This document shows positions 3,575-49,620 of a stretch of DNA of 64,000 nt, in pieces. Origin of the DNA: Escherichia coli (GTDB taxonomy: Bacteria > Pseudomonadota > Gammaproteobacteria > Enterobacterales > Enterobacteriaceae); assembly GCF_013122565.1 (NCBI RefSeq), contig NZ_CP053258.1; one strand, 5' to 3'. Below the pieces are notes generated by a model, which was not told where the DNA came from, made no database searches, and worked only from the letters and a program-made list of their open reading frames with translations. A program made the translations under genes and the position numbers. Every line of letters starts with the position of its first letter. Position 1 is the stretch's first letter.

Positions 3575-4312
3575 ATGCTATATATCTTTCGTCTTATTAT
3601 TACCGTGATTTACAGCATCTTAGTCTGTGTATTCGGCTCCATTTACTGCCTTTTCAGCCCGCGTAACCCGAAACATGTGGCCACCTTTGGGCATATGTTT
3701 GGCCGTCTTGCGCCGCTGTTCGGCCTGAAAGTTGAGTGCCGCAAACCTGCAGACGCTGAAAGCTACGGCAATGCTATCTATATCGCTAACCACCAGAACA
3801 ACTATGACATGGTGACAGCATCGAACATTGTGCAACCGCCGACGGTGACGGTAGGTAAAAAGAGCTTGCTGTGGATCCCCTTCTTCGGGCAGTTGTACTG
3901 GTTAACCGGCAACTTATTGATCGACAGAAACAATCGCACTAAAGCTCACGGCACTATTGCGGAAGTCGTGAATCACTTCAAAAAACGCCGTATTTCCATC
4001 TGGATGTTCCCGGAAGGAACCCGCAGTCGTGGTCGCGGCCTGCTACCGTTCAAAACCGGGGCATTTCACGCGGCAATTGCGGCAGGCGTCCCGATTATTC
4101 CCGTGTGCGTCTCTACAACTTCGAATAAGATTAATCTTAATCGACTGCACAACGGTCTGGTGATTGTCGAAATGCTGCCGCCAGTTGATGTCAGTCAGTA
4201 TGGCAAAGATCAGGTTCGTGAGCTGGCTGCCCATTGTCGTTCGATAATGGAACAAAAAATCGCCGAGCTCGATAAAGAAGTCGCAGAGCGCGAAGCCGCC
4301 GGAAAAGTTTAA
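3575..4312 (+). CDS. plsC: 1-acyl-sn-glycerol-3-phosphate acyltransferase
   Basis: 245 aa; HxxxxD acyltransferase motif (NHQNNYD); FPEGTR motif. Confidence 0.93.
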   Translation: MLYIFRLIITVIYSILVCVFGSIYCLFSPRNPKHVATFGHMFGRLAPLFGLKVECRKPADAESYGNAIYIANHQNNYDMVTASNIVQPPTVTVGKKSLLWIPFFGQLYWLTGNLLIDRNNRTKAHGTIAEVVNHFKKRRISIWMFPEGTRSRGRGLLPFKTGAFHAAIAAGVPIIPVCVSTTSNKINLNRLHNGLVIVEMLPPVDVSQYGKDQVRELAAHCRSIMEQKIAELDKEVAEREAAGKV

Positions 4313-8844: not shown

Positions 8845-11064
8845 ATGAGCTCTATCTCCCTGATCCAACCGGATCGCGACCTGTTCTCCTGGCCGCAGTA
8901 CTGGGCCGCCTGTTTTGGACCGGCACCGTTTTTGCCGATGTCTCGTGAAGAGATGGATCAACTTGGCTGGGATAGCTGCGACATCATTTTGGTTACTGGC
9001 GACGCGTATGTCGATCACCCAAGCTTCGGGATGGCGATTTGCGGTCGTATGCTGGAAGCGCAGGGCTTTCGCGTCGGGATCATCGCCCAGCCGGACTGGA
9101 GCAGCAAAGACGACTTTATGCGTCTGGGTAAACCGAATCTGTTTTTCGGCGTTACTGCTGGCAACATGGATTCGATGATCAACCGCTATACCGCCGATCG
9201 CCGTTTACGTCATGACGATGCCTACACGCCGGATAACGTCGCGGGTAAGCGACCGGATCGCGCCACACTGGTTTATACCCAGCGTTGTAAAGAGGCGTGG
9301 AAAGATGTGCCGGTGATCCTCGGCGGTATTGAGGCTAGTCTGCGCCGTACCGCGCATTATGATTACTGGTCCGATACCGTGCGCCGTTCCGTGCTGGTGG
9401 ATTCCAAAGCCGACATGCTGATGTTCGGTAACGGTGAGCGTCCGTTGGTGGAGGTGGCGCACCGTCTGGCGATGGGCGAGCCGATTAGTGAAATCCGCGA
9501 TGTGCGTAATACTGCGATTATCGTAAAAGAGGCGTTGCCAGGCTGGAGCGGTGTGGATTCCACCCGTCTCGATACCCCAGGGAAAATCGACCCGATCCCG
9601 CATCCGTATGGCGAAGATCTGCCGTGCGCGGATAACAAACCTGTTGCGCCGAAAAAGCAGGAAGCGAAAGCCGTAACCGTGCAGCCGCCGCGCCCGAAAC
9701 CGTGGGAAAAAACCTACGTATTGCTGCCTTCTTTCGAGAAAGTGAAGGGCGATAAAGTGCTGTACGCCCATGCTTCGCGCATTCTGCACCACGAAACCAA
9801 CCCTGGCTGCGCCCGCGCATTGATGCAAAAACACGGCGACCGCTATGTGTGGATCAACCCGCCTGCTATCCCGCTTTCTACCGAAGAGATGGACAGCGTT
9901 TTTGCGCTGCCGTACAAGCGCGTGCCGCATCCGGCCTATGGCAATGCCCGTATTCCGGCTTACGAAATGATCCGTTTCTCGGTCAACATTATGCGCGGCT
10001 GCTTTGGCGGCTGCTCTTTCTGTTCTATCACTGAGCACGAAGGGCGCATTATTCAGAGCCGTTCGGAAGATTCGATCATTAATGAGATTGAAGCGATCCG
10101 CGACACCGTTCCAGGTTTTACGGGCGTAATTTCCGATCTCGGTGGGCCAACTGCCAACATGTATATGTTGCGCTGCAAATCGCCACGCGCTGAGCAAACC
10201 TGCCGCCGTTTGTCCTGCGTTTACCCGGATATTTGTCCGCATATGGACACGAACCACGAACCAACGATCAACCTCTATCGCCGTGCGCGTGATCTGAAAG
10301 GCATTAAAAAGATCCTGATTGCCTCTGGTGTGCGTTATGACATCGCCGTAGAAGATCCGCGCTATATCAAAGAACTGGCGACCCATCACGTCGGCGGTTA
10401 TCTGAAGATTGCCCCGGAACATACCGAAGAAGGGCCGTTATCGAAGATGATGAAGCCGGGCATGGGCAGCTATGACCGCTTTAAAGAGCTGTTCGATACC
10501 TACTCGAAACAGGCAGGTAAAGAGCAGTATCTGATCCCCTATTTCATCTCCGCGCACCCGGGTACGCGTGATGAAGATATGGTGAATCTGGCGCTGTGGC
10601 TGAAAAAGCATCGTTTCCGTCTCGACCAGGTACAGAACTTCTACCCATCGCCGCTGGCTAACTCGACCACCATGTATTACACCGGGAAAAACCCGCTGGC
10701 GAAGATTGGTTATAAGAGTGAAGACGTCTTCGTACCGAAGGGCGACAAGCAGCGTCGTTTGCATAAAGCGTTGTTGCGTTACCACGATCCGGCAAACTGG
10801 CCGTTAATCCGCCAGGCGCTGGAAGCGATGGGCAAAAAGCATCTGATTGGCAGCCGTCGCGATTGCTTAGTGCCTGCGCCAACCATTGAAGAGATGCGTG
10901 AAGCTCGTCGCCAGAACCGCAATACCCGTCCGGCGTTGACGAAACATACGCCGATGGCGACCCAGCGTCAGACGCCTGCTACGGCAAAAAAAGCGTCGTC
11001 TACGCAATCTCGTCCGGTGAATGCTGGTGCGAAGAAACGCCCTAAAGCGGCGGTTGGACGTTAA
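8845..11064 (+). CDS. ygiQ: Radical SAM superfamily protein YgiQ
   Basis: 739 aa; CxxxCxxC-type motif ([13 protein letters not shown]); position next to ftsP. Confidence 0.9.
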
Positions 11065-11073
11065 ATTCGCTGT

Positions 11074-11099
11074 TCCCGGTAGCAGAATTGCTACCGGGG
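11074..11099. terminator. Hairpin downstream of ygiQ
   Basis: tcccggtagca-gaat-tgctaccggga inverted repeat between convergent genes. Confidence 0.4.
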
Positions 11100-11134
11100 A
11101 TATTACTTCAGAATCTATCTCATTAGGCATTTAT

Positions 11135-11491
11135 TTATATGCCGAAATGTATCATGTGTTTATTTTCTCTGATAGCTTTTTGTATTACTTCTGATAAAGA
11201 AAGAAGTAAAGGATCGTGCTGGAATTTTGTATCCGATACAACAATATGAAGAAACTGATTTAATGAATCTGGTGGGATAATGGTGACTCCGTAGCGAGCA
11301 AGCGCATAACCTGGACGATTTAAACTATGATAGAAGGTTTTTATTGTCTGAAGTTGTTCCCACCATTCATCAATATAAATGTCATCATCAATATAAACGC
11401 AATTATATTTTTCAGGTTCATAGTGACCATAATCTTTATCAGTATCAATTTCATCAATAATACCAAATTCGGTTTTAATCATAATGACCAT
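11135..11491 (-). CDS. Hypothetical small acidic protein
   Basis: 118 aa ORF in strongly AT-rich DNA; no recognisable domain; same strand and immediately downstream of the YqhG-like gene. Confidence 0.45.
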   Translation of the reverse strand: MVIMIKTEFGIIDEIDTDKDYGHYEPEKYNCVYIDDDIYIDEWWEQLQTIKTFYHSLNRPGYALARYGVTIIPPDSLNQFLHIVVSDTKFQHDPLLLSLSEVIQKAIRENKHMIHFGI

Positions 11492-11673
11492 GCTTTTTAA
11501 TTGTTATGCAGAAAAATGCCAGGAAAATGATTTAAATTGAATTTTCTGGGGTGATTTGTAATCTTGCTTGTCATATAGATGAGCCATCCAACGAGGTTGT
11601 GCAACATTTAATGAGGGAGACTGGACCAGAACAAGGCTGGGGATTAATATAGAAATGATTAACAATAGTGGCT

Positions 11674-33035: not shown

Positions 33036-34895
33036 ATGAGCAAAGGAACGACCAGCCAGGATGCCCCGTTCGGGACATTATTGGGCTACGCCCCAGGTGG
33101 GGTAGCAATCTACTCTTCAGATTACAGTTCTCTCGATCCGCAGGAATACGAAGATGACGCCGTATTCCGTAGCTATATCGACGACGAATATATGGGCCAC
33201 AAATGGCAATGCGTTGAATTTGCTCGCCGTTTTCTCTTTCTGAACTACGGTGTGGTCTTCACTGACGTCGGCATGGCGTGGGAGATTTTCTCGCTGCGCT
33301 TCCTGCGTGAAGTGGTTAATGACAACATCCTGCCATTGCAGGCATTTCCTAACGGCTCGCCGCGTGCGCCGGTCGCGGGTGCGCTTCTTATCTGGGATAA
33401 AGGCGGTGAATTTAAAGACACTGGCCATGTCGCCATCATTACCCAATTGCATGGCAACAAAGTCCGTATTGCGGAACAGAACGTGATTCATTCCCCGTTG
33501 CCGCAAGGGCAACAGTGGACGCGCGAACTGGAGATGGTGGTCGAAAACGGCTGCTATACCCTTAAAGACACTTTTGATGACACCACCATTCTGGGCTGGA
33601 TGATCCAGACGGAAGATACTGAATACAGCTTACCGCAGCCGGAAATTGCAGGCGAGCTGCTGAAAATCAGCGGAGCGCGTCTGGAAAACAAAGGCCAGTT
33701 TGACGGTAAATGGCTGGATGAAAAAGATCCGCTACAAAACGCCTATGTGCAGGCCAACGGTCAGGTGATCAATCAGGATCCGTATCATTACTACACCATT
33801 ACCGAGAGTGCCGAGCAGGAGCTGATTAAAGCCACCAACGAGCTGCACCTGATGTATCTTCACGCCACCGACAAGGTGCTGAAAGATGACAACCTGCTGG
33901 CGCTGTTCGACATTCCGAAAATCCTCTGGCCACGTTTGCGTCTCTCCTGGCAGCGTCGCCGTCACCATATGATCACCGGTCGTATGGATTTCTGTATGGA
34001 CGAACGTGGCCTGAAGGTCTACGAATACAACGCCGATTCCGCCTCCTGTCATACCGAAGCGGGCTTGATCCTCGAACGTTGGGCGGAGCAGGGCTATAAA
34101 GGCAACGGCTTCAATCCGGCGGAAGGGCTGATTAACGAACTGGCTGGTGCCTGGAAACACAGTCGTGCACGTCCGTTTGTCCATATCATGCAGGACAAAG
34201 ATATCGAGGAAAACTATCACGCGCAGTTTATGGAGCAGGCGCTGCACCAGGCGGGCTTTGAAACGCGTATCTTGCGCGGGCTGGATGAACTGGGCTGGGA
34301 TGCTGCCGGGCAACTGATTGATGGGGAAGGGCGACTGGTTAACTGCGTGTGGAAAACCTGGGCGTGGGAAACTGCGTTTGATCAGATTCGTGAAGTTAGC
34401 GACCGTGAGTTTGCTGCGGTGCCGATCCGTACCGGTCATCCGCAAAATGAAGTGCGTCTTATCGACGTATTGCTGCGCCCGGAAGTGCTGGTCTTTGAGC
34501 CGCTGTGGACGGTGATCCCCGGCAACAAAGCGATTCTGCCGATCCTCTGGTCGCTGTTCCCGCACCATCGCTACCTGCTGGATACCGATTTCAGTGTTAA
34601 TGATGAACTGGTGAAAACAGGTTACGCAGTGAAACCGATCGCCGGTCGCTGTGGTAGCAATATCGACCTCGTCAGCCATCATGAAGAGGTGCTGGACAAA
34701 ACCAGCGGTAAATTTGCCGAGCAGAAAAACATCTATCAGCAACTGTGGTGTTTGCCGAAAGTGGACGGTAAATACATTCAGGTATGTACCTTCACCGTGG
34801 GCGGCAACTACGGTGGGACGTGTTTGCGCGGTGATGAATCACTGGTCATTAAAAAAGAGAGTGATATTGAACCGTTAATTGTGGTGAAAGAGTAA
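33036..34895 (+). CDS. gss: Bifunctional glutathionylspermidine synthetase/amidase
   Basis: 619 aa; MSKGTTSQDAPFGTLLGYAPGGVAIYSSDY; CHAP amidase Cys (KWQCVEF). Confidence 0.93.
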   Translation: MSKGTTSQDAPFGTLLGYAPGGVAIYSSDYSSLDPQEYEDDAVFRSYIDDEYMGHKWQCVEFARRFLFLNYGVVFTDVGMAWEIFSLRFLREVVNDNILPLQAFPNGSPRAPVAGALLIWDKGGEFKDTGHVAIITQLHGNKVRIAEQNVIHSPLPQGQQWTRELEMVVENGCYTLKDTFDDTTILGWMIQTEDTEYSLPQPEIAGELLKISGARLENKGQFDGKWLDEKDPLQNAYVQANGQVINQDPYHYYTITESAEQELIKATNELHLMYLHATDKVLKDDNLLALFDIPKILWPRLRLSWQRRRHHMITGRMDFCMDERGLKVYEYNADSASCHTEAGLILERWAEQGYKGNGFNPAEGLINELAGAWKHSRARPFVHIMQDKDIEENYHAQFMEQALHQAGFETRILRGLDELGWDAAGQLIDGEGRLVNCVWKTWAWETAFDQIREVSDREFAAVPIRTGHPQNEVRLIDVLLRPEVLVFEPLWTVIPGNKAILPILWSLFPHHRYLLDTDFSVNDELVKTGYAVKPIAGRCGSNIDLVSHHEEVLDKTSGKFAEQKNIYQQLWCLPKVDGKYIQVCTFTVGGNYGGTCLRGDESLVIKKESDIEPLIVVKE

Positions 34896-35186
34896 TACAT
34901 GTTGTAACAACCCCGTACTGATTATGAACAATAATTAGTACGGGGATTAATCAAAATATTCAATATTTATATATTCCAATATTTATTCATTTCATATGTG
35001 AATATATTAACCAGCAGAATGCCTGTATTCTGATTATTTCTAAAGATTTTGAATGAATGCTTATTGTCTGATACACAAGAAATAACACTCTTTTTATCGT
35101 TAAAAAATGATATTTCACTTTGCCCACACCGTTAAAGTCACTGATAATGCGTCCGTTCGTAAATTCAAAATGGCGTAATCTAATAT

Positions 35187-36686
35187 ATGCTAAATTTATT
35201 TGTTGGCCTTGATATATATACGGGGCTTTTGTTATTACTTGCTCTGGCATTTGTGTTGTTCTACGAAGCAATCAATGGTTTTCATGACACGGCGAATGCG
35301 GTGGCAACCGTTATTTATACTCGTGCCATGCAGCCACAGCTTGCCGTGGTGATGGCGGCATTTTTTAACTTTTTTGGCGTGTTATTGGGCGGACTTAGCG
35401 TTGCCTATGCCATTGTCCATATGTTGCCAACCGATTTGTTGCTGAATATGGGGTCAACCCACGGTCTGGCGATGGTCTTTTCCATGCTGCTGGCGGCGAT
35501 TATCTGGAACCTGGGAACGTGGTTCTTTGGTTTACCGGCCTCCAGTTCGCACACCTTGATTGGTGCGATTATCGGCATCGGTTTAACCAACGCGCTGTTA
35601 ACCGGCTCATCGGTGATGGATGCGTTAAACCTGCGTGAAGTGACCAAGATTTTCTCCTCACTGATTGTTTCCCCTATCGTCGGTCTGGTCATTGCGGGAG
35701 GCCTGATTTTCCTGCTGCGTCGCTACTGGAGTGGGACGAAAAAGCGTGACCGTATTCACCGCATTCCGGAAGATCGCAAAAAGAAAAAAGGCAAACGTAA
35801 GCCGCCATTCTGGACGCGTATTGCGCTGATTGTTTCCGCTGCGGGCGTGGCTTTTTCGCACGGCGCGAACGACGGGCAGAAAGGGATCGGCCTGGTGATG
35901 CTGGTACTGGTGGGGATTGCTCCTGCTGGCTTCGTCGTCAATATGAATGCGTCCGGCTATGAAATTACCCGCACCCGCGATGCCATCACCAACTTTGAAC
36001 ACTATCTGCAACAGCATCCTGAACTGCCGCAGAAGTTGATTGCGATGGAGCCTTCGCTGCCCGCTGCTCCCACTGACGGCACGCAAGTGACGGAGTTTCA
36101 CTGTCATCCGGCAAATACCTTTGATGCGATTGCGCGCGTTAAAACGATGCTGCCAGGCAACATGGAAAGCTACGAGCCGTTAAGCGTGAGTCAGCGCAGC
36201 CAGCTGCGCCGCATTATGCTGTGCATCTCTGATACTTCCGCGAAGCTGGCGAAACTGCCAGGCGTCAGTAAAGAAGACCAGAACCTGCTGAAAAAACTGC
36301 GCAGCGATATGTTAAGCACCATTGAGTACGCTCCGGTGTGGATCATCATGGCGGTAGCACTGGCGCTCGGCATTGGCACCATGATTGGCTGGCGTCGTGT
36401 AGCGATGACCATCGGTGAGAAGATTGGTAAGCGTGGCATGACGTATGCGCAAGGCATGGCGGCACAAATGACGGCGGCAGTGTCTATCGGCCTTGCCAGT
36501 TATATTGGGATGCCCGTCTCCACAACACACGTACTCTCATCTGCCGTAGCAGGGACGATGGTGGTGGACGGCGGTGGGTTACAGCGTAAAACGGTAACCA
36601 GCATCCTGATGGCGTGGGTGTTTACCTTACCGGCGGCGATTTTTCTTTCTGGTGGGTTGTACTGGATAGCATTGCAGTTGATTTAA
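35187..36686 (+). CDS. pitB: Low-affinity inorganic phosphate transporter
   Basis: 499 aa; PHO4-family signature GANDGQKG. Confidence 0.92.
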
Positions 36687-37427: not shown

Positions 37428-37600
37428 GAATATATCCTTTAATTTAAATATTCATCCAAAATATTTATTTGGTTAATATGTTTTGATGAAAGCGTAAATC
37501 AGGTCAATGTCATAATTAACCATTGTCACAATAAGGTTGAACGGATATTCTGAGCACGGACCACGTAATATTCAATACATTATTTACTGCCGGGTTTTTC

Positions 37601-44106: not shown

Positions 44107-45195
44107 TTACTGCTTCAGAGTAGCAAATGCCTGAATGATGGTATCGATTTGCTCACGACTGTGGGCAGCGTTTACGCTACAGCGCAGCAGCGTGATGCCT
44201 GCAGGCGCGGCAGGTGGCAGGATAAGATTCACATAAACGCCCAGCGAAATAAGCTCGCGCCAGATGCGTAAACCTTCCTCTTTCGAACCGATTATTACCG
44301 GCACTACCGGACTAATATGTGAACTTAACTCATAACCCAGTTTTTGCAGACCGTCATACAGATGGTTGGCGTTATCCATCAGTTTTTGCCGCAGCTCTGG
44401 TTGTGTGGCAATGGTTCTTAACGACGAGCGCACGGTCGCAATGCAGGACGGAGAAGGAGAGGCGGTAAAAATATACGGGCGGCTGCCGTAGCGCAGCACT
44501 TCCATCGCTTCCGAACCGACAGCAAAACCGCCAATCGAGGCCAGACTTTTACTGAAGGTACCAACGATAATATCCACATCATCTTCAACGCCAACGGCTT
44601 CAGCCAGTCCGCGCCCCGTTGCGCCTAACACGCCAAACGAATGCGCTTCATCGACAATCAAATAACCACCGAGACGACGTTTGATATCAACAATTTCCGC
44701 TAACGGCGCAACGTCACCGAGCATGCTGTAGATACCCTCAACGATGATAATCGCCTCTTTCGCCCGTTCACCGAGGCGAACCATGCGCCGTTCCAGATCT
44801 TTAGCATCGTTATGGCGGAAACGAATAATTTCCGCGCCACCGAGAGAACAGGCGTCATAAATACTGGCGTGGCTGTCGGCATCCAGTAACACCACGGCGT
44901 TATGGTCGGCAAGTGCGCTGATGACGCCTAAATTAGCGGTATAACCGGTTGAAAAAACGATAGCGGTAGGGCGATTGAAAAACTCGGCAATCTCTTTCTC
45001 TAACGCCAGGTGCGGCGCATAACTGCCGTTTGCCATACGAGAACCGGTGGTGCCGGTGCCTTGGGCCGCTAACGCTGCCTGACCTTCGGTGGCGGAATAC
45101 ACTTCATCAATACAGGTGCCAAACGGTGTTAACCCGTTGTCACTAAATTGCAGTCGCTCGCCAGCAAGGCGCGCATATTTATCGTATAGCCCCAT
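44107..45195 (-). CDS. PLP-dependent alpha-oxoamine synthase (BioF/Kbl/serine palmitoyltransferase family)
   Basis: 362 aa; DEAHSFGVLGATGRG and GTFSKSLASIGGF (PLP-lysine motif). Confidence 0.75.
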   Translation of the reverse strand: MGLYDKYARLAGERLQFSDNGLTPFGTCIDEVYSATEGQAALAAQGTGTTGSRMANGSYAPHLALEKEIAEFFNRPTAIVFSTGYTANLGVISALADHNAVVLLDADSHASIYDACSLGGAEIIRFRHNDAKDLERRMVRLGERAKEAIIIVEGIYSMLGDVAPLAEIVDIKRRLGGYLIVDEAHSFGVLGATGRGLAEAVGVEDDVDIIVGTFSKSLASIGGFAVGSEAMEVLRYGSRPYIFTASPSPSCIATVRSSLRTIATQPELRQKLMDNANHLYDGLQKLGYELSSHISPVVPVIIGSKEEGLRIWRELISLGVYVNLILPPAAPAGITLLRCSVNAAHSREQIDTIIQAFATLKQ

Positions 45196-45443
45196 TATTT
45201 ATTCTCCAGCCATGGAAGTAGAGTTTCCATTAATTGCGCAGGGGTTTTGACATCCAGCAGAATATTAATAGGAATGGAAATATCGAATCTGTCTTCCAGC
45301 ATCATTAAGAGATCCATCACTTTGATCGACTCCAGGCCAAGATCGTTGACGAGATCGCTGTCGGGCTTAATTTCCACACCGTTTTCGACCAAATCCTGTA
45401 AACAGGAAAGGATGTAATCCATTACTATTTCACGATTTACCAT
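45195..45443 (-). CDS. Acyl carrier protein
   Basis: 82 aa; phosphopantetheine attachment-like motif DLGLESIK; stop overlaps the downstream start. Confidence 0.7.
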   Translation of the reverse strand: MVNREIVMDYILSCLQDLVENGVEIKPDSDLVNDLGLESIKVMDLLMMLEDRFDISIPINILLDVKTPAQLMETLLPWLENK

Positions 45444-45474
45444 AGAAACGTTAACACACCTTTAAACAAGACAA

Positions 45475-46389
45475 TCAAAATAGCCCGTTGCGTAATGCGT
45501 GTTCCAGGCTAATCCCGGGAAACCAATTAATATCTTCAGAAATACGGTTATTATTTGCCGACCAGTCGGCGTGGGTTAATTCACGAATTTTCGAGCGGGT
45601 CAGCATAGGTTCTTTACCTGCCAGGCGACTCAACGCAGTACTGATATCCGCAAGGCAGGTGAGTACCGGCAGAGGAATGCCAACCATCCGCACAGAACCA
45701 CAACGGGCTTCGGCGGCAAGCTGTCGTACGCGTTGCCAGTCATAGCCGCCAGCGACGCCATCGCATAATTCATAGGTTTGCGTCTGTACAGTTTCGGCGC
45801 TTAACCACTGACCCACGGCTTGCGCGAAATCGGTGACGTGCAGGAAAGAGAGCTGTGTATCTGGCGCACCAAGTCGTGGCAGCAGGCCGCGCAGCATCCA
45901 GTCAAACAGCGGTTTTAACTCTTTATCGCCTGGACCATACACGGCTGTCGGGCGAAAAACGCCCAGCGTAATTTCATCAGCCATTGCAGTCAGCCGTTGT
46001 TCGGCGACGTGTTTGGAATTTGCGTACCAGGAGAGTTCGGGATGGCGCGCCGCCAGCGAAGAGATAAACAGAAAACGTTGGCAAAAGCCGCTCTCTTTTG
46101 CCGCTTGCATCAGGCGCAGGCTGCCGTCAACGTTACAGTGGGTAAAAATCTCTTCTTTGTGTCCGCGCACTTGCCCGGCGCAATGGACCACCGCGCTGGC
46201 TCCGGCAACCAGTTCGCTAAGTGAATGAGTATCTTCCAGCGAACCGCGCACCCAGGTGAGATTGTCATTGACGTGAGCGCGGGCAGTACGCGTCAATGCG
46301 CGAACGTGAAAGCCGCGGGCGAGCAGGTTATCGATAATATATTTACCGATAAACCCGGTAGCGCCCGTCACCGCGACAGTTTGATTCAT
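45475..46389 (-). CDS. NAD(P)-dependent epimerase/dehydratase-family reductase
   Basis: ~304 aa from Met MNQTVAVTGATGFIGKYI (Rossmann GxTGxxG); ATG overlaps the stop of the upstream ligase gene; the ORF track extends to 46599. Confidence 0.7.
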   Translation of the reverse strand: MNQTVAVTGATGFIGKYIIDNLLARGFHVRALTRTARAHVNDNLTWVRGSLEDTHSLSELVAGASAVVHCAGQVRGHKEEIFTHCNVDGSLRLMQAAKESGFCQRFLFISSLAARHPELSWYANSKHVAEQRLTAMADEITLGVFRPTAVYGPGDKELKPLFDWMLRGLLPRLGAPDTQLSFLHVTDFAQAVGQWLSAETVQTQTYELCDGVAGGYDWQRVRQLAAEARCGSVRMVGIPLPVLTCLADISTALSRLAGKEPMLTRSKIRELTHADWSANNNRISEDINWFPGISLEHALRNGLF

Positions 46390-48107
46390 GCCAGGGATTC
46401 CTGCACATGAAGACTGGCAGCATAAGCCTTCTGATAACGTTTTTTCGCTTCCGCACGGGCAGGCTTGCCGGAGGACGTTCGGGGAATACTGTGGGGCGGC
46501 AACAGATCGATAGCCGCGGTCACGCCAAATTCGCTTTGGATCCGTGCCGCCAGCGCGTGGATAAGCTGCCCGCGACGTTCTTCGTCGCTGATCCGACACT
46601 GGATCTGCAAAATGATTTTTTCCTGGGCGGTAACAAAAGCAATCGCATCGCCAGAATGAATTTCCGGTTCCTGTTCCGCAATATATTCAATATCCTGCGG
46701 CCAGATATTACGGCCACGAATAATAATCAGATCTTTAATGCGTCCGGTGACATACAGATAACCGTCCAGCAGATAACCGAGGTCGCCGGTGTCTAACCAG
46801 CCCGTCGCGGCAATCTCGTCTTGCGAAGCCTGGTCGCCAAAGTAACCGCTCATCAGGCTAGGGCCGGAGATGCAAATATGGCCTACCACACGTTCCGCGA
46901 CAGGTATACCTGCTTCATTGCGGATTTCAATGCCATGTTCCGGCAACGCTTTGCCGCAGTTGACGAAAGTCGATACGGCGCGTGTCTCTGCACCCGGCGC
47001 GACGGCTTTACCCTGATATTCGAGGATGTCGCGATCCACTTCGTTAACCACAACCCCGGAGGCTTCATCAGAGAAGCTGACAGCCAGCGCATTTTCTGCC
47101 AGTCCGTAGCACGGCATGAAAGTTTTATTGTCAAAGTTAACCTGACGGAAACATTCAGCGAATTGATGGAGTTGTTCTGCGGAGATGGGTTCTGCACCAA
47201 TACCAGCGACGCGCCAGGAGGAAAGATCCAGTTCAGCGAGATCTTTTTCATTCACGCGGCGCTGGCACAATTCATAGCCAAACGGCGGCGCAACGGAAAC
47301 GGTGCCGCGATTTTTACTGATCAATTTAAGCCATTGCAGAGGACGCATGGCAAAATCCTGAGTGCGCAAATAATCTACTGAAAGCTGCGTGGCGACAGGG
47401 GTCAGGAGAAAGCCGACCAGTCCCATATCATGGTAGAAAGGCAGCCAGGAGACGCAGCGGTCGCCAGGGCGTAATTTAATGCCATCGTGGCTTATAGCAC
47501 GTAGATTAGCCATCACTTCGCGATGGGTGATAATGACGCCACGGGGAAAACGGGTGCTGCCGGAGGTGTACTGGAGGTAGGCGATATCGTTCGGAACTGG
47601 ACGCTGGAGCGCAACATCGGCTTCCGGTAATGCCTTAAACCAGGCGTGGCTTAAAACATGTAATTCGGGATTGTTATGCGTCGCGGCATTGACCAGTGGC
47701 AACCACTCATCACCAGTGATAATGGCTGCGGGCTGGCAACTTGCCAGTAAACCCTGCAGTTTGGCGCTCCAGGAATCCCGCTGACCGACGCCCATTGGAA
47801 TCGCCAACGGGACGGCGACTAAGCCGGCATACTGGCAGGCAAAAAAAGCCTCTACGAACCCGCTACTGGTTTCGGCAATCAGCGCCACGCGATCGCCTTT
47901 TTTCAGGTTCAGCGATAACAACCGCTTCGCACCAGCTTCGGCACGCGCTTTTAACGTCTGATATTCCAGTTGATCTTCAAGTTGGCAACGTCTGTCATAA
48001 AAATTCATTCCAGCGCTACTCAGAGCGGCGTAGTCCAAAGCATCAACCAGCGTTGGAAAATCGGCATAGCGCATAGGTAGGGAATGCGTAAAGATTTTAT
48101 TAGACAT
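46386..48107 (-). CDS. Fatty acyl-AMP ligase / acyl-ACP synthetase (adenylate-forming superfamily)
   Basis: ~573 aa from Met MSNKIFTHSL; AMP-binding motifs YTSGSTRFPRGV, GYGLAE; C-terminal SSGKPAR. Confidence 0.75.
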   Translation of the reverse strand: MSNKIFTHSLPMRYADFPTLVDALDYAALSSAGMNFYDRRCQLEDQLEYQTLKARAEAGAKRLLSLNLKKGDRVALIAETSSGFVEAFFACQYAGLVAVPLAIPMGVGQRDSWSAKLQGLLASCQPAAIITGDEWLPLVNAATHNNPELHVLSHAWFKALPEADVALQRPVPNDIAYLQYTSGSTRFPRGVIITHREVMANLRAISHDGIKLRPGDRCVSWLPFYHDMGLVGFLLTPVATQLSVDYLRTQDFAMRPLQWLKLISKNRGTVSVAPPFGYELCQRRVNEKDLAELDLSSWRVAGIGAEPISAEQLHQFAECFRQVNFDNKTFMPCYGLAENALAVSFSDEASGVVVNEVDRDILEYQGKAVAPGAETRAVSTFVNCGKALPEHGIEIRNEAGIPVAERVVGHICISGPSLMSGYFGDQASQDEIAATGWLDTGDLGYLLDGYLYVTGRIKDLIIIRGRNIWPQDIEYIAEQEPEIHSGDAIAFVTAQEKIILQIQCRISDEERRGQLIHALAARIQSEFGVTAAIDLLPPHSIPRTSSGKPARAEAKKRYQKAYAASLHVQESLA

Positions 48108-48477
48108 ATACACCACGAAAAAATTGGATATCAAAAATAAAATGACAATAATGCGGTGGATTATATAGGCATAAAAGATAAATGAGATAGTATTTTCATC
48201 AGTGTGAAAATGAACATTGATTTAAATAATAGGTTTGGTTTTGTTGTTTTTATTGTGAATGATATTTAATTTATGAATATATTAAGAAGAAGCCTTGTCC
48301 GGTCGCCTTAAATCGACAAAAGGCATTGTGGCGCTTCTGTGTAGTCTCTGACCTTATCTTAATCATTAATAAATACTATTTATTCTTTATTTGTATTCAT
48401 TGGGTTGATTATTAAGATGCCGTTCGTTGCTGTTGTAACCTGTTTGTCACCGTTAATTATTTGTTATCCACAGAGAT
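48108..48477. promoter_or_regulatory. AT-rich divergent intergenic control region between the ligase operon and yghO
   Basis: 370 bp of strongly AT-rich sequence with A/T tracts between divergent gene starts. Confidence 0.5.
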
Positions 48478-49620
48478 ATGGAATGCGATCTGCTGATGAT
48501 TAAAATTGAAAAAGTAATTAATAAAAATGACCTTAAGGCATTTATCGCTTTTCCGTCATCACTTTATCCCGACGATCCAAACTGGATACCCCCTTTATTC
48601 ATTGAACGCAACGAGCATTTGTCTGCGAAAAATCCGGGGACGGACCATATCATCTGGCAGGCGTGGGTGGCAAAAAAAGCGGGGCAGATAGTTGGGCGTA
48701 TTACCGCGCAAATAGATACCTTGCACCGCGAGCGTTACGGCAAAGATACCGGTCATTTCGGCATGATTGACGCCATTGATGATCCGCAGGTTTTTGCCGC
48801 GTTGTTTGGCGCAGCGGAAGCGTGGTTGAAGTCACAAGGTGCAAGTAAGATCAGCGGTCCTTTCAGCCTGAATATCAATCAGGAAAGCGGATTACTGATT
48901 GAAGGTTTCGATACACCACCCTGTGCGATGATGCCGCACGGTAAACCGTGGTATGCCGCGCATATTGAACAATTGGGTTATCACAAAGGCATTGATTTAC
49001 TGGCGTGGTGGATGCAGCGAACCGATCTCACTTTCTCTCCGGCGCTAAAAAAACTGATGGATCAGGTGCGCAAAAAGGTGACCATTCGCTGCATCAATCG
49101 CCAGCGGTTTGCCGAAGAGATGCAGATCCTGCGTGAGATTTTCAACTCTGGCTGGCAGCACAACTGGGGATTTGTGCCGTTTACCGAACATGAATTCGCG
49201 ACCATGGGCGACCAACTTAAATATCTGGTGCCGGACGATATGATCTACATCGCTGAGATTGATTCTGCACCCTGCGCGTTTATTGTCGGCTTGCCGAACA
49301 TCAACGAGGCGATTGCCGATCTGAACGGATCGCTCTTTCCCTTCGGCTGGGCAAAATTGCTGTGGCGTTTGAAAGTCAGCGGTGTGCGAACTGCGCGAGT
49401 ACCGCTGATGGGCGTGCGCGACGAGTATCAGTTCAGCCGCATCGGCCCGGTAATTGCGCTGTTATTGATTGAAGCCTTACGCGATCCGTTTGCCCGCCGG
49501 AAGATCGATGCGCTGGAGATGTCATGGATCCTCGAAACCAATACAGGCATGAATAACATGCTGGAACGCATTGGGGCGGAGCCGTACAAGCGTTACCGAT
49601 TGTATGAAAAGCAGATTTAA
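48478..49620 (+). CDS. yghO: YghO, acyl-CoA N-acyltransferase-like protein (intact)
   Basis: 380 aa uninterrupted ORF; position next to glcC; alternative start at MIKIEK (48496). Confidence 0.7.
   Translation: MECDLLMIKIEKVINKNDLKAFIAFPSSLYPDDPNWIPPLFIERNEHLSAKNPGTDHIIWQAWVAKKAGQIVGRITAQIDTLHRERYGKDTGHFGMIDAIDDPQVFAALFGAAEAWLKSQGASKISGPFSLNINQESGLLIEGFDTPPCAMMPHGKPWYAAHIEQLGYHKGIDLLAWWMQRTDLTFSPALKKLMDQVRKKVTIRCINRQRFAEEMQILREIFNSGWQHNWGFVPFTEHEFATMGDQLKYLVPDDMIYIAEIDSAPCAFIVGLPNINEAIADLNGSLFPFGWAKLLWRLKVSGVRTARVPLMGVRDEYQFSRIGPVIALLLIEALRDPFARRKIDALEMSWILETNTGMNNMLERIGAEPYKRYRLYEKQI

Follow-up and report, generated by a model that had tools for sequence, protein, structure and literature searches.

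The AT-rich divergent control region of the Escherichia coli sphingolipid locus, a bidirectional promoter region plausibly involving H-NS/StpA

The stretch of DNA analysed here, referred to below as the window, comprised 64,000 nucleotides of an E. coli contig (NZ_CP053258.1) and displayed 98-100% identity to E. coli chromosomes. Within this 64-kb window, an AT-rich divergent intergenic region of 370 bp (48108..48477) separates aasR, on the minus strand, from yghO, on the plus strand. The former (46386..48107) codes for a fatty acyl-AMP ligase or specialised acyl-ACP synthetase (Pfam AMP-binding, E = 1e-59; RefSeq name; homologue of ECD_02851, PMC9386255) and is the first gene of a leftward operon with the order aasR-cerR-acpR-spt. 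The three genes that follow, all on the minus strand, encode an NAD-dependent reductase (cerR, also called epi, 45475..46389; Pfam Epimerase, E = 1e-23; homologue of ECD_02852), a specialised acyl carrier protein (acpR, 45195..45443; Pfam PP-binding; ECD_02853) and a serine palmitoyltransferase (spt, 44107..45195; Pfam domain of the aminotransferase class and RefSeq name; ECD_02854). Two LptF/LptG paralogues, a YtfJ-family protein and the flippase-like YghQ are encoded to the left of spt. On the other side of the region, yghO (48478..49620; RefSeq YghO) codes for an N-acyltransferase of the aca or bacterial ceramide-synthase type. No Pfam domain was matched by yghO; its counterpart ECD_02850 was described as aca, the homologue of Caulobacter CC_1154 (PMC9386255).

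This ensemble is the published rhodobacterial-type sphingolipid (ceramide) locus of E. coli B and UTI89. Clustered genes for spt, acpR, aasR, the reductase and the N-acyltransferase are all present and match ECD_02850-02854 gene by gene, the sphingolipid genes of E. coli B having been assigned as yghO (ECD_02850), aasR (ECD_02851), epi (ECD_02852), acpR (ECD_02853) and spt (ECD_02854) (PMC9386255). The same locus was reported in UTI89, together with LptF/G/C homologues tied to sphingolipid export (2026 preprint, bioRxiv 10.64898/2026.04.12.717747). Caulobacter (CC_1154-CC_1165), BL21 (ECD_02850-02854) and UTI89 share one and the same set, composed of aasR, epi/cerR, acpR, spt, yghO (the aca homologue) and the LptF/LptG paralogues. 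An earlier, sequence-only reading of this DNA had supposed that the product of the cluster had escaped notice; this was mistaken, as the cluster had already been published as a sphingolipid/ceramide locus (PMC9386255; bioRxiv 10.64898/2026.04.12.717747). The papers on the rhodobacterial-type locus deal with enzymes and transport and do not describe its control region or regulation in E. coli, and our literature search recovered no paper on either subject.

In the strain studied here, spt carries an in-frame deletion of 84 bp (28 codons) near 45087, leaving a protein of 362 aa versus 390 aa. The residues removed (37-64) include NNYLGL, a motif conserved in alpha-oxoamine synthases. This deletion was absent from all best-matching complete E. 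coli genomes, each of which aligned in two pieces spanning 485 bp. The serine palmitoyltransferase is probably inactive in this strain, and the sphingolipid pathway may be inactive as well, whatever its promoters do.

The limits of the region are set by the two start codons. The aasR ATG at 48107 (MSNKIFTHSLPMRYADF) is kept in every genus examined, an in-frame indel of 6 nt preserving the frame, and this cross-genus conservation supports the left boundary that had been placed at 48107/48108. The start given for the ligase by RefSeq/PGAP (ATG 48074) is probably 11 codons too short, since other genera share both the ATG at 48107 and the codons in between. On the right, position 48477 is the base preceding the annotated yghO ATG (48478). 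The ancestral yghO start is, from the comparison of genera, likely Met7 (ATG 48496): all other genera start YghO at the equivalent of this residue, behind a conserved TAAGG Shine-Dalgarno sequence and often with in-frame stops upstream. In Escherichia, TAAGG was lost, and the extra in-frame ATG at 48478, 18 nt further upstream, is without a good ribosome-binding site. The aasR start (48107, minus strand) and the yghO start (48478 or 48496, plus strand) both face the region, so that coordinates and gene orientation agree with the earlier description of a divergent control region shared by the lipid operon and yghO. A perfect DnaA-box 9-mer (TTATCCACA, 48464-48472) was also encountered 5 nt before the annotated yghO start codon; the match is probably due to chance, because the common E. 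coli haplotype reads TTACCCACA at this position. An inverted pair located near both start codons (TGGATATCAAA / TTTGTTATCCA) was rejected as a candidate element, being not conserved outside Escherichia.

The base composition of the region is extreme. Its A+T content reaches 70.0% (30.0% G+C) versus 48.8% (51.2% G+C) for the whole window, where only 0.23% of the 370-bp windows are equally AT-rich, and the most AT-rich 100 bp of the 64 kb (80% A+T) fall inside it; the AT-richness claimed from the sequence alone was thereby borne out. Two AT-rich arms, a left one of 76% A+T (48108-48290) and a right one of 70% A+T (48346-48477), surround a central island of 55 bp with normal G+C content (51%; 48291..48345), which is hypervariable among Escherichia lineages. 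The counterpart in strain CFT073 measures 409 bp from annotated start to annotated start and displays 32% G+C, and neighbouring divergent intergenic regions of CFT073 are 156-251 bp long with 41-46% G+C. The aasR-yghO region is thus 10-14 G+C points lower than these neighbours and about twice their length. As for the long A/T tracts that had been pointed out, A/T-only runs of up to 13 nt do occur, but no homopolymer exceeds A6 and the tracts lack helical phasing. Curvature, judged solely by the phasing of A-tracts against shuffles, was not supported: the A-tracts are without 10-11-bp phasing, and the AA/TT power at 10-11.3 bp was 0.66 compared with 0.64 +/- 0.32 for shuffles, 40% of which reached it (p = 0.40).

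Other AT-rich spots were recorded in the window. The gss-pitB intergenic region (34897-35187) contains its most AT-rich 370 bp (28.6% G+C at 34848-35217); both pitB and gss are absent from the list of H-NS-bound genes of CFT073 that is examined below. Another spot, beside ygiQ (11041-11545, 31% G+C), lies in a segment with two hypothetical genes. The 2-kb segment 10300-12300 looks like a small variable islet, since it was matched over at least 80% of its length in only 121 of 5,426 complete E. coli genomes.

The sphingolipid locus is broadly distributed. It was found in 4,076-4,126 of these 5,426 genomes (about 75%; the acpR-spt segment in 4,126) and in other Escherichia species, and the coding DNA flanking the region displays a host-like G+C content of 51-52% in Escherichia loci. 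Between Escherichia clades, yghO and aasR gave dN/dS values of 0.04-0.08, indicating strong purifying selection. On these comparisons the locus is not a recent acquisition, and the term xenogeneic, which had been applied to its control region, is not supported, given the flanking G+C content, the presence of the cluster in about three quarters of the genomes and a dN/dS of about 0.04. Moreover, since the dN/dS values show that the genes are still under selection, yghO and aasR must be expressed somewhere. Neither K-12 nor O157 can serve as a source of data on the locus. In K-12, an IS5 element sits on the 5' end of yghO and a deletion runs through to yghQ, by which the control region and the lipid operon are gone (locus L002, 6147-7341). 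In O157 Sakai, SpLE3 occupies the place and the yghO-glc region is missing together with the lipid cluster (locus L003, 2168-25618). Because both strains lost the locus, the usual K-12 and EHEC data sets are blind to it.

The intergenic DNA itself is unevenly conserved. Its divergence within Escherichia (0.19-0.24 per site) is lower than synonymous divergence in the same comparisons (0.27-0.48). Approximately 115 bp beside each start codon are conserved within the genus, whereas the centre (48225-48345) is hypervariable, with indels and two very different haplotypes among lineages; the existence of these two haplotypes makes a conserved structured element in the island unlikely. Compared to the common E. 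coli intergenic haplotype, most differences of the present strain are G/C-to-A/T changes.

Putative promoters were recognised on both strands. On the minus strand, the best-scoring site combines a candidate aasR -10 element TATAAT (48160..48165) with the -35 element ATCTCA (48188..48183); its predicted start lies near 48153, the TATAAT is located about 46 nt from the aasR ATG, and this hexamer is invariant in five out of five aligned Escherichia sequences. On the plus strand, we infer a candidate yghO promoter, TTGTAT-16-TAAGAT (48391..48418), from which transcription would start near 48425. Its -10 element, TAAGAT in this strain, is a better match than the TAAGGT of CFT073 and PapRG-04-4. With a sigma-70 weight matrix, the scores of which are a rough ranking only, the 370-bp tile of the region held 30 sigma-70-like sites, the highest number in the window (median tile, 3). 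This number equals that of composition-matched shuffles (27 +/- 6.7), and a stricter promoter scan recovered one site versus 3.4 expected.

Searches for other elements gave little. No Rfam family was assigned to the region (801 bp searched, E up to 10), the three matches being at chance level (best E = 1.3), and the search of five homologous loci returned nothing in the intergenic region. No terminator-like site was found in 48108-48477, and the 23 short inverted pairs of the region are as expected for AT-rich DNA. Open reading frames of 21-32 codons do occur in 48108-48477, in segments with indels and two haplotypes; they were rejected as small-protein genes, together with those of at least 35 codons in the longer regions of other genera, none being conserved. 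CRP-like TGTGA half-sites (48203 and 48254), a Fur-like match (12 of 19, around 48350-48368) and a FadR-like match in the island (48295-48309) were weak by eye and were dropped; no known regulator site was found in the E. coli aasR-yghO region.

Outside Escherichia, the divergent aasR/yghO pair is kept at 42 further loci of Enterobacterales and Pseudomonas, with a spacing of 300-1,130 bp. In all 42, the intergenic region is G+C-poorer than the flanking genes, by 6-24 points. Its sequence is unalignable between genera apart from one module, which Escherichia is without. This module contains a perfect match (12 of 12) to the PhoP box, TGTTTA-N5-TGTTTA, in which both half-sites are invariant but the spacer differs between loci. 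The consensus of this box was given as (T/G)GTTTA-N5-(T/G)GTTTA, and PhoP was reported to help overcome H-NS at complex promoters (PMC3335776). Of 51 loci (about 700 kb), 12 contained the perfect box, each as a single copy in the same place and orientation, in Serratia, Tatumella, Pantoea brenneri and Klebsiella indica (minus strand; among them L013 5602-5618, L015 2453-2469, L016 2330-2346, L020 4362-4378, L022 5625-5641, L038 5603-5619, L039 5607-5623, L044 5601-5617 and L047 5621-5637). Its distance to the yghO start is near-constant (347-372 nt). A 17-mer, GCATTAAGTGGTAAAAA, which resembles an extended -10 element, sits at 54-56 nt from the box; about 28 loci of other genera contain it, and it is absent from Escherichia. 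As RNAalifold predicted 0 pairs and no consensus structure for the module, conservation of the module is at the DNA level.

In the E. coli region, no PhoP box was detected (best match 9 of 12, none with two mismatches or fewer). The segment CATTAATAAATA (48364..48375, plus strand) is possibly a degenerate remnant of the 17-mer; this likeness is weak and by eye, and its position agrees with the alignment to Citrobacter amalonaticus. Compared to the other loci, we read the Escherichia region as a derived form, shorter, more AT-rich and devoid of the PhoP box module displayed by many Enterobacterales. A related situation is offered by virK, pagC and ugtL of Salmonella, the AT-rich promoters of which are silenced by H-NS and counter-silenced through PhoP boxes at variable distance and orientation (PMC3335776). 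Like them, the aasR-yghO regions of Serratia, Pantoea, Tatumella and K. indica display a predicted PhoP box far from either start. The E. coli region differs from them by having no PhoP box, and the locus by a host-like G+C content, in contrast to the AT-rich acquired DNA of Salmonella. Our literature search recovered no paper that connects PhoP with the sphingolipid genes of bacteria.

With its 70.0% A+T over 370 bp, the composition of the E. coli region is of the type preferred by H-NS and StpA. High-affinity nucleation by H-NS takes place at a motif with a TCGATAAATT-like consensus. With this consensus, one site with two mismatches (TTCATAAATT, 48268-48277, minus strand) and seven with three or fewer were counted, similar to the numbers of other AT-rich spots; no strong H-NS motif was found in 48108-48477. 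Silencing of the region by H-NS, as the sequence-only reading had proposed, is plausible.

Published occupancy data allowed a comparison at the locus of CFT073, where H-NS and StpA were mapped by ChIP-seq in rich medium (Hustmyer et al., mBio 2022, PMC9765446). The locus is present in this strain, with 97% identity between its intergenic region and that of the window. Between kpsM (c3698) and c3752, the only H-NS-bound genes are c3714 (249 nt), yghS and yghT (PMC9765446, Data set S1E). By gene order from kpsM, c3714 is acpR. Its H-NS occupancy was 0.216 in the wild type and fell to 0.042 in the hns mutant, with a StpA occupancy of 0.187 (PMC9765446); when scaled to c0021 (0.437 occupancy for 36.7-fold), the enrichment would amount to roughly 18-fold. 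Both yghS and yghT were H-NS- and StpA-bound, and the signal of bound genes was lost in the hns mutant (PMC9765446). On the other hand, yghO (c3711) and aasR (c3712) are absent from this per-gene list, in which a bound call reflects the average over a whole gene with an apparent cut-off of about 7-fold (6.6-fold unlisted, 7.7-fold listed) and intergenic DNA is not scored. The comparison proposed earlier with ChIP data came out in part: acpR, yghS and yghT are bound, but the two genes facing the region are unlisted and the region itself is unscored. A paper on H-NS ChIP in ETEC H10407 had no entry for genes of the sphingolipid locus.

Two observations were made alongside. The divergent yghT/yghS intergenic region (37428..37600) displays 69.9% A+T, both of its flanking genes being H-NS/StpA-bound in CFT073, so that the sphingolipid locus is bracketed by two AT-rich divergent regions. 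Besides, G+C falls locally to 43% at acpR and its surroundings (45150-45600), within the operon; a silenced internal promoter of acpR-spt, or else an elongation block, could be located there.

The occupancy data were calibrated on the first 285 kb of CFT073, by recording the H-NS signal of genes adjacent to every spot where G+C fell to 35% or lower over 300 bp. At 11 of the 12 independent AT-rich spots, an adjacent gene reached 4.6-fold H-NS signal or more (baseline about 0.7), which gives fairly high prior odds of H-NS binding on composition. The lone exception, dapB/carA, is equally AT-rich and displays no H-NS signal; AT content alone is thus no guarantee of binding. Like the aasR-yghO region, this region upstream of carAB is a long, extremely AT-rich intergenic sequence (minimum 300-bp G+C, 27%) beside genes of normal G+C content; it is highly regulated, and the H-NS signal of its neighbours in CFT073 stays at the baseline of 0.7.

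A closer likeness is provided by the caiT-fixA region of E. coli, likewise a divergent AT-rich region (about 470 bp, 472 exactly; minimum 300-bp G+C, 29%) between flanks of normal G+C content. The cai and fix genes are activated by CRP, FNR and CaiF and are induced by anaerobiosis with carnitine, whereas aasR and yghO are without known regulator or signal. In CFT073, the genes flanking the caiT-fixA region displayed 5.6- and 6.6-fold H-NS signals and were still scored as not bound, and the same pattern would be expected for yghO and aasR. Since regions of this type can carry signal while their neighbours stay off the list, the absence of yghO and aasR from it is uninformative. On these grounds, occupancy of the aasR-yghO intergenic region by H-NS/StpA appears somewhat more probable than not; sequence features contribute little.

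Indirect information on the expression of the chromosomal genes comes from BL21(DE3). In complex medium at 30 C, cells with empty vectors or overexpressing only their own serine palmitoyltransferase made no detectable 3-oxo-sphinganine, which was produced once plasmid-borne AcpR and AasR were added (PMC9386255). The chromosomal aasR and acpR consequently supply little. When 3-oxo-sphinganine was supplied, BL21 displayed compounds migrating like sphinganine and ceramide, which the authors suggest to be made by the chromosomal reductase ECD_02852 and yghO (PMC9386255). If they are right, expression of these two genes is above zero. Low expression of the locus, perhaps above zero, fits these data best. 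Our searches for c3711-c3716 and for H-NS in combination with sphingolipid returned nothing relevant, including no expression data for c3711-c3715, and no report of a sphingolipid made from E. coli's own chromosomal genes was found.

The reading that we favour, with a probability of roughly 55%, is that of a shared bidirectional promoter and leader of the sphingolipid locus that is likely also a nucleation site for H-NS/StpA keeping both units low in laboratory media. The region would drive aasR-cerR-acpR-spt leftward and yghO rightward; its 70% A+T would make it a likely site of H-NS/StpA nucleation; and H-NS/StpA on it, together with the patch mapped on acpR in CFT073, would hold both transcription units low until some signal or counter-silencer acts. 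The region might instead be an ordinary AT-rich bidirectional promoter answering to specific regulators, with H-NS immaterial, as at carAB. This has an appreciable though clearly smaller likelihood. The baseline signal beside the equally AT-rich dapB/carA, the missing bound call for yghO and aasR in CFT073, and the lack of a curvature signal or strong H-NS motif are all in keeping with it, as is the conservation within Escherichia of the start-codon flanks, expected of core promoters and leaders. Yet 11 of the 12 comparably AT-rich spots of CFT073 adjoin H-NS-enriched genes, H-NS/StpA sits on acpR of the same operon and on yghS/yghT, and the search for specific regulators produced no known site (PhoP best 9 of 12, weak CRP-, Fur- and FadR-like matches).

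A regulatory relic, in which an ancestral module was lost and the sequence drifted to A+T under mutational bias while the locus was becoming cryptic, is improbable. It would account for Escherichia lacking the PhoP box, the 17-mer and the yghO Shine-Dalgarno sequence of other genera, for the hypervariable central part, for the absence of the locus from K-12 and O157, and for the private spt deletion and mostly G/C-to-A/T intergenic differences of this strain. Against it speak the dN/dS of 0.04-0.08 for yghO and aasR across Escherichia clades, an intergenic divergence below the synonymous one, the invariant TATAAT at 48160-48165 and the retention of the cluster in about 75% of complete genomes. 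More doubtful still, to the point of being very improbable, is that the length of the region is explained by a hidden element, be it a small RNA, a riboswitch-like leader or a small protein gene. Such an element would fit the doubled length relative to neighbouring divergent regions and the presence of ORFs of 21-32 codons, but these ORFs sit in segments of indels and two haplotypes, the longer regions of other genera are without a conserved ORF, no Rfam match was better than E = 1.3, no terminator-like site was present and the module of the other genera has 0 predicted RNA pairs.

The promoter region with likely H-NS/StpA nucleation remains our preferred reading. The region is real and unusually AT-rich, but in other respects an ordinary bidirectional promoter of a known lipid locus; a part for H-NS/StpA is plausible and is backed in some measure by published data on the locus as a whole. 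A wider proposal, tentative and short of even odds, is suggested by the comparison of genera. PhoP might directly control aasR-yghO in many Enterobacterales (Serratia, Pantoea, Tatumella and Klebsiella indica), plausibly by counter-silencing H-NS, and Escherichia might be a rewired descendant that lost both the PhoP input and the yghO ribosome-binding site and is held off by H-NS/StpA until a different signal acts.

The full locus for ceramide synthesis and export is present in about three quarters of the complete E. coli genomes. Finding what holds both promoters off, or turns them on, is a practical step towards identifying the natural product and what it does in the outer membrane, and the region offers one concrete target of 370 bp for the H-NS question. 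In the relatives, the PhoP box points to low Mg2+, acid pH and cationic peptides as conditions, and its distribution points to a rewiring of the regulation of the locus within one bacterial order. If control by PhoP is true, bacterial sphingolipid synthesis would be part of the outer-membrane remodelling driven by PhoPQ.
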